Assembly: GCF_054482525.1 (NCBI RefSeq)
Contig: NZ_CM137006.1
Direction: 5' to 3' (one strand)
Length of the DNA stretch: 64,000 nt
The stretch's first letter is position 1. Each line of letters opens with the position of its first letter. Under the pieces are notes generated by a model. The model had not been told where the DNA came from, ran no database searches, and worked only from the letters and a program-made list of their open reading frames with translations. Of this stretch, positions 6,485 through 6,832 are shown one piece after another. The position numbers and the translations under genes are program-made.

Positions 6485-6513
6485 TTGCAACATTGATTTC
6501 GTAACGTTATTAT
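6485..6513 (+). promoter_or_regulatory. Candidate sigma70 promoter for the tRNA cluster
   Basis: TTGCAA, 17-bp spacer, TATTAT, then GC-rich discriminator cctgcgcc just before tRNA 1. Confidence 0.4.
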
Positions 6514-6522
6514 CCTGCGCCC

Positions 6523-6598
6523 GGCCCTTTAGCTCAGTGGTGAGAGCGAGCGACTCATAATCGCCAGGTCGCTGGTTCAAATCCAGCAAGGGCCACCA
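6523..6598 (+). tRNA. tRNA with CAT anticodon (Ile2/Met-type)
   Basis: 76 nt cloverleaf ending CCA; anticodon loop CTCATAA; close to E. coli ileX as recalled. Confidence 0.7.
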
Positions 6599-6599
6599 G

Positions 6600-6676
6600 C
6601 CGCCACTAGCTCATCAGGAAAGAGCGTCAACCCTTTAAGTTGAGTGTGCGAGGTTCGAGTCCCCGGTGGCGGTCCA
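6600..6676 (+). tRNA. Atypical tRNA-like gene (anticodon loop CCTTTAA, UUU with C33); possibly non-canonical or pseudo-tRNA
   Basis: 77 nt; acceptor CCGCCAC/GTGGCGG plus T-CCA; D-arm GCTC/GAGC; T-loop TTCGAGT; one A-C mismatch in T-stem. Confidence 0.4.
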
Positions 6677-6678
6677 GT

Positions 6679-6754
6679 GCCGACTTAGCTCAGTAGGTAG
6701 AGCAACTGACTTGTAATCAGTAGGTCACCAGTTCGATTCCGGTAGTCGGCACCA
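6679..6754 (+). tRNA. tRNA-Thr (anticodon TGT)
   Basis: 76 nt; acceptor GCCGACT/AGTCGGC, anticodon stem ACTGA/TCAGT, loop CTTGTAA, ends ACCA; one T-stem mismatch. Confidence 0.6.
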
Positions 6755-6757
6755 TAT

Positions 6758-6832
6758 GCGGGCATCGTATAATGGCTATTACCTCAGCCTTCCAAGCTGA
6801 TGATGCGGGTTCGATTCCCGCTGCCCGCTCCA
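6758..6832 (+). tRNA. tRNA-Gly (anticodon TCC)
   Basis: 75 nt; anticodon loop CTTCCAA; appears identical to E. coli glyT as recalled. Confidence 0.75.

Follow-up and report, generated by a model that had tools for sequence, protein, structure and literature searches.

It has long been asked what tRNA genes do for phages, and recent work shows that some of these genes counter tRNA-cutting immunity and are not codon supplements. Both ideas meet in an array of four tRNA genes found in a prophage in the stretch of E. coli DNA analysed here (64,000 nucleotides of contig NZ_CM137006.1, referred to below as the window). Three members of the array are plain decoders, two of them being exact copies of host genes, and one, tRNA2 (also called X below), is not explained by supply.

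Organization of the tRNA array and the surrounding late region

Exactly four tRNA genes were called by ARAGORN across the 64 kb window, and all four were accepted by the Rfam model RF00005 (gathering score 29 bits) with E-values from 3.5e-6 to 2.8e-14 (Table 1). Successive genes are separated by spacers of 1, 2 and 3 nt. The initial annotation had placed four packed tRNA genes with anticodons CAT, TTT, TGT and TCC at 6485-6832, behind a near-consensus promoter and downstream of a Q-like gene, and all of these points were confirmed.

Table 1. Features of the tRNA array and the adjoining late region (positions in the 64,000-nt window)
Feature	Position	Strand	Basis
Late antiterminator Q gene	5633..6328	+	phrog_304 'anti-termination protein Q-like', E 9.8e-109
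Probable late promoter pR' (TTGCAA-17-TATATT), extending across the 3' end of Q	6312..6340	+	consensus scan, 9/12 matches
Short leader RNA ending in a hairpin and T-run (6392-6419), probable tR'	6344..6419	+	hairpin AAAACCCGC/GCGGGTTTT, read directly
Own sigma-70 promoter of the array, TTGCAA-17-TATTAT, -10 ending 9 nt before tRNA1	6485..6513	+	consensus scan
tRNA1, ileZ-type tRNA-Ile2, CAU	6523..6598	+	ARAGORN; Rfam 72.5 bits; 76/76 to ileZ of a Stx2a phage
tRNA2 (X), argN-lineage tRNA-like gene, loop CCUUUAA	6600..6676	+	ARAGORN; Rfam 44.4 bits; 65/77 to argN
tRNA3, exact copy of host thrU, tRNA-Thr(UGU)	6679..6754	+	ARAGORN; Rfam 73.8 bits; 76/76 to K-12 thrU
tRNA4, exact copy of host glyT, tRNA-Gly(UCC)	6758..6832	+	ARAGORN; Rfam 64.9 bits; 75/75 to K-12 glyT
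Three perfect inverted repeats (6839-6884, 6892-6963, 6962-7016) in an untranslated stretch past the array	6839..7016	+	repeat search
Intrinsic terminator-like hairpin and T-run	7039..7062	+	terminator scan
Holin, first gene of the lysis cassette	7124..7339	+	phrog_9876 and phrog_20
Lysozyme ORF	7758-8291		PGAP name of homolog
Rz	8273-8755		phrog_13

In the prophage, Q lies upstream of the array, and the holin, lysozyme and Rz genes lie downstream. Both Q and the holin were named by PHROGs, an NCBIfam search giving no name for either, and the homolog of the Q ORF is called 'bacteriophage antitermination protein Q' in PGAP. The promoter overlapping the end of Q is, from its position, probably pR'. 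The palindrome of the leader hairpin downstream of it was reported by the terminator scan on the minus strand only, and comparison of the leader with the prophage sRNAs isrK and isrJ gave weak, sub-threshold scores (22.7 and 24.5 bits, respectively).

The promoter of the array itself, with its -10 element ending 9 nt upstream of the first gene, was found before 94 of 160 ileZ-type starts, and close variants of it in other genera keep their distance to the array while the surrounding sequence has diverged. The hairpin at 7039..7062 is probably the end of the array's own transcript; by analogy with lambdoid biology, polymerase under Q would be expected to pass it. The layout of Q, an ileZ-first tRNA array and then lysis or toxin genes was present in 99 of 125 loci, and was also seen in other genera. 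We conclude that positions 6485-7062 hold a tRNA operon with a promoter of its own, located in the late region of a lambdoid prophage between Q/pR'/tR' and the lysis genes.

The ileZ-argN-argO cluster of Stx2-converting phages (e.g. Stx2a_F349, phage 2851 and 933W) is found in the same place, between Q and the lysis/toxin genes. It has in common with the present array the promoter, an identical ileZ (76/76) and a homologous second gene, but the loop of this second gene is CCUUUAA here (C33, anticodon UUU) and CUUCGAA in argN (U33, anticodon UCG), and argO is replaced here by the exact copies of thrU and glyT. No stx gene follows this array.

The three ordinary tRNA genes and codon usage

A 7-nt anticodon loop, U33 and a purine at position 37 are all present in tRNA1, tRNA3 and tRNA4, and tRNAs of the ileZ, thrU and glyT types read codons that are rare in E. 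coli. tRNA1 is named tRNA-Ile by PGAP everywhere, and has 89.5-92% identity to the host genes that PGAP names tRNA-Ile, which we take to be ileX/ileY. A reading as tRNA-Met was ruled out by this naming and identity; tRNA1 is a lysidine-type phage ileZ tRNA-Ile2, whose CAU is read as lysidine and decodes AUA.

The Gly gene had been judged identical to host glyT, which holds for 75/75 positions, but the statement that the other genes do not match host genes was wrong for the Thr gene, which is identical to host thrU at 76/76 positions. In the host, thrU and glyT lie in the thrU-tyrU-glyT-thrT operon upstream of tufB, and the two genes equal tRNA3 and tRNA4 from nt 1 to CCA. The array, unlike this operon, is without tyrU, the 116-nt spacer, thrT and the flanks, and has its two genes 3 nt apart. 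The thrU homology of tRNA3 is confined to the gene, the flanks of tRNA4 are unrelated to those of host glyT, and in a megablast search with the array as query host genomes matched the thrU and glyT portion only.

Codon use per 1000 codons was counted in a prophage of 95-98% identity, on its annotated genes, and compared with that of the neighbouring host genes. The late genes use ACA (14.0 versus 9.1) and GGA (13.0 versus 9.4) 1.4-1.5 times as often as the adjacent host genes, whereas AUA is not enriched in the late genes overall (5.3 versus 6.2); it is enriched in the lysis genes (15.8), and the related prophage has cdt genes in which AUA is enriched as well. AAA is lower in the late genes than in the host neighbours (32 versus 40). 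The proposal that the cluster compensates for the codon usage of late genes thus has modest and partial support, given by ACA and GGA, and none from AAA. AAA is a common codon for which the host has several tRNA-Lys genes, and with its lower use in the late genes the supply argument fails for tRNA2; Lys codon compensation by this gene was rejected on these counts. In the E. coli sample, the rate of change of the thrU and glyT copies is close to that of the flanks, and selection on both is therefore weak. We regard codon compensation as very improbable as the explanation of the whole cluster with X included.

Sequence features of tRNA2

Direct reading of the anticodon loop of tRNA2 gave C32 C33 U34 U35 U36 A37 A38, with the anticodon UUU, and the T stem, CGAGG/CCCCG, contains an A51.C63 mismatch, in agreement with the loop CCTTTAA, the C33 and the T-stem mismatch noted earlier. 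The loop has the 7 nt and A37 of a canonical elongator tRNA, but C33 in place of U33. The gene has C1-G72, U73 and an encoded CCA at its ends, and all stem pairs other than A51.C63 are standard. Its cloverleaf was calculated at -25.5 kcal/mol versus -25.0 kcal/mol for the MFE, although the energy assigned to the A.C pair is unreliable; the cloverleaf was not recovered by plain MFE folding (z -1.46), a result of little weight where tRNAs are concerned.

tRNA2 occupies the slot of argN, directly after ileZ. The two genes are 84% identical (65 of 77 positions) and have C1-G72, A51.C63 and U73 in common, and two pairs have undergone compensatory changes from argN to tRNA2 (G30-C40 to A30-U40, and U7.G66 to C7-G66). 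C35 is an ArgRS determinant; tRNA2 retains A20, but has U35 and U36 instead of an Arg anticodon with C35. The region 6600-6676, which a covariance model might have rejected as a tRNA, was accepted with 44.4 bits against the threshold of 29. Since canonical argN scores only 43.0 bits on RF00005, the low score of tRNA2 is a trait of the lineage and not an effect of C33. Relatives with non-canonical loops fall below the gathering threshold.

Of the traits of tRNA-Lys, tRNA2 has the anticodon UUU, and U34 U35 U36 is the main LysRS determinant in E. coli tRNA-Lys(UUU); it does not have A73, and its body is like that of argN rather than that of tRNA-Lys. The host tRNA-Lys loop differs from that of tRNA2 at position 33 alone (U33 versus C33). 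Positions 39-41 also differ from those of host tRNA-Lys. The modification t6A37 requires U36 A37 A38, and a U33C tRNA is left unmodified by E. coli TsaBCDE (PMC8887486); no base-specific contact was seen at U33 (PMC13276492). tRNA2 has U36 A37 A38 together with C33, and because the E. coli enzyme makes no t6A on a U33C tRNA, its normal maturation as tRNA-Lys is unlikely. tRNA2 is derived from the phage tRNA-Arg (argN) lineage, and is most likely not a normal Lys decoder. It may have residual weak decoding of AAA/AAG. A shifted register of the loop, which would make tRNA2 an ochre suppressor (UUA), had no support, the relatives giving no consistent reading.

A family of tRNA-shaped genes in Enterobacterales

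By its scaffold, tRNA2 is one member of a widespread family of tRNA-shaped genes (the X family) distributed in the phages and chromosomes of Enterobacterales. It matches the family scaffold CCGCCAY-UAGCUCA...GGUUCGAG...RUGGCGG-N-CCA, and the family model R1, whose seed alignment contains tRNA2 itself, gives it 95.5 bits. Literature searches for the family, including searches for yahM and for tRNA-like decoys, found no description of it.

The family was collected via sequence patterns fixing 22 scaffold positions, and the alignment A4 (74 loci, 54 distinct sequences) was fitted to the model, so that the apparent conservation of the family is somewhat inflated. In A4, 94.5% of cells form a standard pair versus 88.5% in shuffles, and none of 500 shuffles reached 94.5%. 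In ten pairs both partners have changed. The anticodon stem is compensatory at all five of its pairs (97.8% paired), and CCA is invariant throughout. The acceptor, D, anticodon-stem and T arms are thus kept in the family together with CCA, whereas the anticodon loops vary from 4 to 13 nt and usually miss U33. The canonical loops in A4 (U33, A37 A38) carry Arg anticodons only. An assignment of Ser or Leu anticodons to the 6-nt loops was abandoned, the register being arbitrary, and the only regularity that we trust in these loops is C-N-N-N-R-U.

A syntenic X copy is common to eight Buttiauxella species. Its scaffold has no substitution outside the loop and two adjoining stem positions, while five different loops are found and the flanks have diverged. 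The copy between yahL and yahM was compared in four Escherichia genomes, E. albertii among them, and is identical at 81 of 81 positions, with diverging flanks. This yahL-yahM copy belongs to the E. coli core genome and is unannotated there. Copies that stand alone are equipped with a promoter and a terminator. X was also found in phage contigs of other genera, in position 2 of a Met(cat)-X-Thr-Gly array, and position 2 of the array is held by an X-scaffold gene from Escherichia to Yersinia, Serratia and Edwardsiella. Of 79 genome loci, only about 10 could be assigned to an obvious late region by a tblastn search that used a small set of Q and lysis proteins; from the reading of ORFs, many of the remaining genome copies are chromosomal.

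Selection maintains the tRNA body in the X lineage, but leaves the anticodon loop free in sequence and length. The initial annotation had suggested a pseudo-tRNA or a non-standard decoder, which was a fair guess, but the evidence favours a third option, a selected body with an unselected anticodon loop. Because the body is conserved and the loop is not, X is expected to have a role other than normal decoding. We put forward tentatively, as a possibility on the doubtful side, that the X family is an undescribed class of tRNA-mimic RNAs of Enterobacterales, in which a conserved CCA-ended body would carry a lineage-specific 'specificity loop' where a working anticodon loop would otherwise be, and act by binding and not by decoding. 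Such RNAs could, for instance, inhibit immune nucleases that target tRNAs, or serve them as decoys that are not cleaved, or act in these ways on other proteins that bind the anticodon arm. If the family were confirmed as a functional RNA, a non-decoding role would be added for phage 'tRNA genes', many prophage calls of 'tRNA-OTHER', pseudo-tRNA or skipped genes would be explained, and the E. coli core genome would contain an unannotated conserved RNA.

A conserved stem around a variable spacer of 4-13 bp also resembles the core site of a tyrosine recombinase, and X might act as DNA, as a recombination or attachment site, with the anticodon stem as its conserved inverted repeat and the loop as the variable overlap in between. 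The Buttiauxella sequence past the X locus differs between species, and a Cedecea locus (L140) sharing that downstream type with Buttiauxella has an integrase there; this integrase, however, follows the neighbouring Gly(tcc) gene and not X (L140 being the only one of these loci with ORFs read). The differences between X and argN lie to either side of the loop, the acceptor, D and T arms and CCA, none of them needed by a core site, are also conserved with covariation, and solitary copies have a promoter and terminator. We find a role as a DNA site hardly credible.

Variation of tRNA2 within E. coli

The C33-UUU-AA loop was found in all 121 Lys-like copies from IMG/VR and GenBank loci. A search of IMG/VR for a U33 version found none, the sole match being an unrelated tRNA-Arg(CCU) of a large phage. 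The polymorphism density of the rest of X leads to an estimate of about 1.5 segregating sites for the six loop positions; 0 were observed, which is not significant.

In 56 E. coli loci with homologous flanks, X had a pi of 0.023, compared with 0.0009 in ileZ and 0.009-0.021 in the non-coding flank on the downstream side. The diversity of X is therefore about 25 times that of ileZ and equal to or above that of the homologous non-coding flanks; no constraint on X is visible inside E. coli, where it evolves as fast as these flanks. About one quarter of the E. coli copies are damaged at positions that are invariant in the wider family, with U8C in 21 copies and a 1-nt deletion in the D stem in 13 copies, including those of PPompW phages and of EPEC E2348/69. 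The X copy of the window is the intact majority haplotype; strains 20Ec-P-124 and XH992 are further examples with an intact X.

This pattern would fit X as a decaying relic of an argN-type phage tRNA-Arg, its loop mutated, functionless in E. coli and carried between useful tRNAs. The damage occurs in common haplotypes, the gene is often skipped by PGAP and by phage annotators, the lack of loop polymorphism is not significant, and C33, U73 and A51.C63 are all unfavourable in a Lys decoder, C33 blocking t6A by the E. coli enzyme. Yet dead genes are rarely kept in compact phage genomes, and an X-scaffold gene is found at position 2 from Escherichia to Edwardsiella; compensatory change maintains the scaffold, the orthologous copies of Buttiauxella and of yahL-yahM are invariant between diverging flanks, and the window itself has an intact copy. 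The relic is a doubtful explanation, but because X in E. coli evolves as fast as non-coding flanks, it is nearly as likely as a mimic. If X were a mere relic, the finding would be an ordinary one: prophage tRNA clusters of this type are known, and only the set of genes would be new.

Possible function of X and comparison with known systems

Our preferred explanation, to which we give a probability of about 0.4, is a self-promoted operon of three supply tRNAs and one RNA, X, that does not decode normally and would serve as a mimic of or stand-in for tRNA-Lys toward proteins binding the anticodon arm. Its conserved sigma-70 promoter would drive transcription of the array, and once the prophage is induced, Q-modified polymerase would also read through it from pR'. 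RNase P and 3' trimming would release four CCA-ended RNAs, as the 1-3 nt spacing and the encoded CCA suggest. The ileZ-type tRNA-Ile2 would read AUA, the thrU copy ACA/ACG and the glyT copy GGA/GGG, the three together raising the supply of low-abundance decoders. X would be made as a stable tRNA-shaped RNA that proteins recognising the anticodon arm of tRNA-Lys would meet as a mimic of or replacement for it, and would itself be a poor substrate for tRNA-Lys-directed nucleases. X is possibly a stand-in or decoy aimed at nucleases attacking tRNA-Lys, for which PrrC and RloC (cutting at 33/34) and PARIS AriB (cutting at 40/41) would be the first candidate targets. The X-family relatives with loops of 4-6 nt cannot be tRNA-Lys surrogates. 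Irrespective of what the scaffold does in the family, the Lys-like loop may be incidental or a product of AT-rich drift.

PrrC cuts 3' of U33 (PMC2610378), and C33 of tRNA2 adjoins this cut. AriB needs U36-A-A-U-C|A41 for recognition and its cleavage is abolished by U39A (PMC12409363); tRNA2 has U-A-A-G-U-U at this site, with GUU versus UCA at positions 39-41. The thrU copy of the array retains the exact AriB site, so the array is not a complete PARIS escape kit.

Infection was rescued by phage tRNA-Lys, and not by host tRNA-Lys, from both PrrC170 (PMC11555353) and PARIS (PMC12409363). The tRNA-Lys of T5 (against AriB) and that of SP15 (against PrrC170) are like X in being phage-borne with the anticodon UUU, and in having a body and positions 39-41 unlike those of host tRNA-Lys where AriB reads and cuts. 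These genes, however, belong to virulent T5-type phages and their rescue was shown by experiment, whereas X, a candidate evader, belongs to a temperate lambdoid prophage; C33, U73, the T-stem mismatch and the tRNA-Arg origin further separate X from them. Position 33 is not mentioned in the available portions of the two papers (PMC12409363, PMC11555353). For phage tRNAs, van den Berg et al. (2023, PMC10264068) put forward evasion of anticodon nucleases as a reason for mutations in the anticodon loop, and the idea of loop changes shaped by tRNA-targeting defences of the host could also apply to X; the available part of that study deals with 7-nt loops and working decoders, and has nothing on position 33 or on loop-length variation over a conserved body. 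C33 is natural in the initiator tRNAs of multicellular eukaryotes, but these are P-site initiators with co-evolved t6A enzymes, and E. coli TsaBCDE rejects C33 (PMC8887486).

The same comparisons would suit a genuine charged tRNA-Lys(UUU), less efficient on AAA/AAG but nuclease-resistant, that sustains phage translation like the T5 tRNA-Lys. ARAGORN, Rfam and PGAP accept tRNA2 as tRNA-Lys, and its 7-nt loop has U34 U35 U36 A37 A38. LysRS reads mainly the anticodon, and C33 tRNAs keep partial function on the ribosome. On the other hand, tRNA-Lys(UUU) depends heavily on its loop modifications, of which C33 would prevent t6A37; to our knowledge U33 is otherwise universal in elongator tRNAs; U73 and the T-stem mismatch, as well as the relaxed constraint on X in E. 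coli, do not fit a decoder either, and sister genes with loops of 4-6 nt cannot decode, yet are conserved. We consider a working Lys decoder unlikely.

A role of X in tuning the programmed -1 frameshift that produces the tail-assembly fusion GT, by tandem slippage of tRNA-Lys(UUU) on A AAA AAG, is equally hard to credit as a DNA site. Such a heptamer was found at 18715-18721, in phase with the G ORF (18338-18724) and immediately preceding its stop codon, with the T ORF (18736-19026) in the -1 frame, and a hypomodified tRNA-Lys could perhaps alter slippage there. However, the X genes of related arrays have loops that are not Lys-like, and host tRNA-Lys alone supports such slips in other phages.

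Organization of the tRNA array

ARAGORN found four tRNA genes in the 64-kb window, all on the plus strand, with CCA encoded in each and spacers of 1, 2 and 3 nt between them. All four, including an atypical second gene, lie where the initial annotation had placed them and exceed the gathering score (29 bits) of the Rfam tRNA model; the Q-like gene upstream and the promoter, also proposed there from the sequence alone, were both recovered (see table). Among 160 ileZ-type starts in the collected loci, a −35 (TTGCA), 17-nt spacing and a −10 (TATTAT or TATCAT) that stops 9 nt short of the tRNA genes recur in arrays of several genera amid otherwise diverging sequence, which supports a real promoter dedicated to the array. 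The region 6312-6419 probably comprises the pR' promoter, a short leader RNA and the tR' hairpin; by analogy with lambdoid biology, we infer that pR' transcription may read through into the array under Q. The stretch 6344-6417 is weakly similar to the prophage sRNAs isrK (22.7 bits) and isrJ (24.5 bits), both below the Rfam threshold. Three perfect inverted repeats fill the untranslated gap between the last tRNA gene and the terminator-like hairpin, and in the first of them the loop is similar to a motif found 3' of the tRNA-like gene of phage YeP1 of Yersinia (L005, ~1590-1640).

Features of the array, its surroundings and a related chromosomal element (window coordinates unless a locus is named)
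Feature	Position	Strand	Basis or remark
QueH homolog, 228 aa	2030-2716	+	prophage early region
sok/hokD toxin-antitoxin	2784-3108
RusA gene; DUF968/HNH protein gene			upstream of array
Q antiterminator ORF	5633-6328		upstream of array; phrog_304, E 1e-108
Promoter-like site overlapping Q end	6312-6340
Hairpin and T-run	6392-6419		after promoter-like site
Array promoter TTGCAA-17-TATTAT	6485-6513	+	promoter scan
tRNA1 (cat), ileZ type	6523-6598	+	ARAGORN; Rfam 72.5 bits
tRNA2 (ttt), X	6600-6676	+	ARAGORN; Rfam 44.4 bits
tRNA3 (tgt), thrU copy	6679-6754	+	ARAGORN; Rfam 73.8 bits
tRNA4 (tcc), glyT copy	6758-6832	+	ARAGORN; Rfam 64.9 bits
Inverted repeats	6839-6884; 6892-6963; 6962-7016		arms 11, 14 and 9 nt
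Terminator-like hairpin	7039-7062		after array
Holin ORF	7124-7339		PHROGs
Rz spanin ORF	8273-8755		PHROGs
YfbU-like ORF, 179 aa	9183-9722	-	between Rz and HNH/terminase genes
HNH gene; terminase genes			downstream of array
Frameshift site A AAA AAG	18715-18721		ORFs 18338-18724 and 18736-19026
RseX	43604-43693		host sRNA
DsrA	52029-52115		host sRNA
yahL-yahM element, 81 nt	L247:465-545; L141:3470-3550; L129:1051-1131		L247, E. coli K-12 type

Location and distribution

The window is a segment of an E. coli chromosome, and the host sRNA genes RseX and DsrA downstream place the prophage in the zinT-to-dsrA region. A prophage region in strain 20Ec-P-124 is 95-98% identical to the window; it carries cdtABC for cytolethal distending toxin I (L127:16029-18129), where only ~55 bp are present in the window (~32872-32927). 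At least 80% of the array region (6440-6900) is held by 505 of 5,426 complete E. coli genomes, and the whole stretch is carried by the GenBank phages vB_EcoS-689R5, vB_EcoM-606R7 and PhiR47_1. The arrangement Met(cat)-Lys(ttt)-Thr(tgt)-Gly(tcc) was found at 99 of 125 loci, mostly IMG/VR contigs retrieved through the T arm of tRNA2, and PPompW phages have ileZ-X-argO. Records disagree on tRNA2: some annotate it as tRNA-Lys and others omit it.

The ileZ, thrU and glyT genes

tRNA1 is identical (76/76) to ileZ of a Stx2a phage, is named tRNA-Ile by PGAP at every occurrence, and shares 89.5-92% identity with the host genes PGAP-named tRNA-Ile, which we take to be ileX/ileY. It is a lysidine-type AUA reader and not tRNA-Met. 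The initial annotation had noted a host match for the Gly gene only. The match to K-12 glyT is indeed complete (75/75), but tRNA3 is likewise identical to K-12 thrU (76/76). In both, identity runs from nucleotide 1 to the CCA and the flanks are unrelated (window 6679-6832 versus L128:302-661); the host tyrU and a 116-nt spacer are missing from the phage array, the absence of tyrU being precise. Copies of this kind, which have the size of mature tRNAs, could have entered the phage array by capture and trimming, by a cDNA route or through gene conversion by the host copies.

tRNA2 is a homolog of argN

The loop of tRNA2 is C32 C33 U34 U35 U36 A37 A38 and its T stem (CGAGG/CCCCG) contains an A51.C63 mismatch, as originally read; the acceptor stem opens with C1-G72, and the discriminator base is U73. 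It is identical at 65 of 77 positions to argN, the tRNA-Arg(UCG) gene that follows ileZ in Stx phages, and both have C1-G72, A51.C63 and U73. Between argN and tRNA2 the stems stay paired through compensatory changes (G30-C40 to A30-U40, and U7.G66 to C7-G66). On this comparison tRNA2 is an argN homolog. With argN reaching just 43.0 bits on the Rfam model, the low tRNA2 score is a trait of the lineage and does not indicate damage. C33-UUU-A37-A38 was present in 121 of 121 Lys-like copies, C32 being the sole varying position (three copies), and an IMG/VR pattern search requiring T at position 33 in the tRNA2 stem context found no relative.

A family with a conserved body and a variable loop

Scanning a single genome of each bacterial species with motifs from the 5' acceptor/D-arm and the T-loop gave 79 loci, nearly all in Enterobacterales, which have the tRNA2 body and an N73-CCA end in common and widely different anticodon loops; we call this family X, as we do tRNA2. 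A covariance model seeded with 15 members picked up 74 loci; of their 54 distinct sequences, 5, 3, 19, 23, 2, 1 and 1 have loops of 4, 5, 6, 7, 8, 10 and 13 nt, respectively. Canonical 7-nt loops (U33, A37 A38) carry Arg anticodons only (CUUCGAA, CUCCUAA, CUUCUAA); in most of the others position 33 is A, C or G (e.g. CAUUUAA, CAUAUAA, CCUUUAA, CGUAAGC), and the few remaining have U33 but depart from the canonical form at other positions (AUUUUAU, CUUUGUA, UUUUCGA). Loops of 6 nt fit the pattern C-N-N-N-R-U. The CCA is invariant, and no single position varies more than the discriminator; the Rfam tRNA model did not report the non-canonical members. Standard pairs occupy 94.5% of alignment cells versus 88.5% in shuffles (0/500 reaching 94.5%), ten pairs changed on both sides, and all five anticodon-stem pairs are compensatory (97.8% paired). 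These values call for caution, since the pattern used in the search had set 22 scaffold positions and the alignment was fitted to the covariance model.

Further comparisons are independent of the search pattern. In Buttiauxella, a syntenic copy in eight species shows no scaffold substitution outside the anticodon loop and two adjoining stem positions, while the loop takes five forms (AGCAGU, CUCAGU, CGCAGU, CACAGU, CAUAG) and the flanks are heavily diverged. In Escherichia, an unannotated tRNA-like member lies between yahL and yahM, overlapping the annotated start of the hypothetical ORF yahM, in 5,168 of 5,426 complete E. coli genomes; the sequence is identical (81/81) in the four Escherichia genomes compared (one E. 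coli of K-12 type, one divergent E. coli, one E. albertii and Escherichia sp. E1V33), both flanks vary, and a conserved TTGACA-16-CATAAT lies ~95 nt upstream. Solitary copies in Citrobacter and relatives lie between a promoter and an intrinsic terminator, phage contigs of other genera again contain the Met(cat)-X-Thr(tgt)-Gly(tcc) array, there with 5-6 nt loops (e.g. UAAAU, UUAAU, CACGGU, CUUGGU), and Q upstream or lysozyme/Rz downstream was found at about ten family loci. Together these comparative data show a tRNA-shaped RNA gene with its body under selection and its loop either free or lineage-specific. After the terminator of solitary copies in Enterobacter, Citrobacter and relatives there is a conserved 74-aa ORF starting MLEGYFDLD (L161, L166, L179, L198, L199, L142).

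Within E. coli, constraint on the X copy looks lower. Across 56 loci with homologous flanks, pi was 0.023 for the part of X outside the positions fixed by the search pattern, 0.009-0.021 for the non-coding downstream flank, about 0.008 for the thrU and glyT copies and 0.0009 for ileZ. Stem changes in X are mixed, some being pair-preserving C-to-U transitions and others rare and disruptive. Two haplotypes are frequent, one with U8C (21 copies) and one that has lost 1 nt of the D stem (13 copies, PPompW phages and EPEC E2348/69 among them), both changes falling at positions invariant across the wider family. This diversity and these haplotypes would be compatible with X being a relic in E. coli, a reading that we regard as credible though less likely than not.

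Possible functions

Codon compensation, as initially suggested, held in part: late genes use ACA and GGA 1.4-1.5 times as often as the adjacent host genes do, enrichment of AUA is confined to the lysis genes and the cdt genes of the related prophage, and AAA is rarer in late genes than in host genes. Supply is plausible as a modest role for tRNA1, tRNA3 and tRNA4; for X it is very improbable given the AAA counts, and a tuner of frameshifting or a DNA site is about equally improbable.

Apart from C33 in place of U33, the X loop matches that of host tRNA-Lys, and positions 36-41 of X read UAAGUU. The PARIS nuclease AriB needs UAAUC|A at 36-41 and a change of U39 abolishes cutting (PMC12409363); PrrC cuts directly 3' of U33 (PMC2610378). 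Phage tRNA-Lys genes, and not host tRNA-Lys, rescued infection from PrrC170 (PMC11555353) and PARIS (PMC12409363). That X is a true nuclease-proof decoder is unlikely, as U33C tRNA is not modified by E. coli TsaBCDE (PMC8887486), and a Lys decoder would be poorly served by U73 and the mismatched T stem. Set against the AriB and PrrC sites, its loop and positions 39-41, with the rescue by phage tRNA-Lys, the TsaBCDE failure, U73 and the mismatch, point to X as a tRNA-shaped RNA that would mimic or replace tRNA-Lys toward anticodon-arm-binding proteins and be at best a weak decoder (probability about 0.4). The array falls short of a full set for escaping PARIS, since its thrU copy retains the AriB site unaltered.

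Relation to known arrays and other prophage genes

RefSeq and GenBank already contain annotations of the present array. Both tRNA arrays after Q (ileZ-argN-argO, argO being the third gene) and a counter-defence role of phage tRNAs are known. In Stx phages the argN slot holds Arg(UCG), whereas here it holds a C33 Lys-like gene; the literature searched contained no description of this switch, of its combination with identical copies of host thrU and glyT, or of a conserved-body, variable-loop family including an E. coli core-genome copy. That the family is a new class of tRNA-mimic RNAs is a tentative possibility.

The prophage also encodes a sok/hokD toxin-antitoxin and a homolog of QueH (epoxyqueuosine reductase, a tRNA-modification enzyme), named after the PGAP name of its homolog in a near-identical prophage and also matching phrog_3217. 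The YfbU-like ORF (E 1e-8, under the curated cut-off) lies on the opposite strand in a moron-like placement. In the tail-chaperone genes G/GT, an in-phase programmed -1 frameshift site directly precedes the stop of G, and the slip there depends on tRNA-Lys(UUU).
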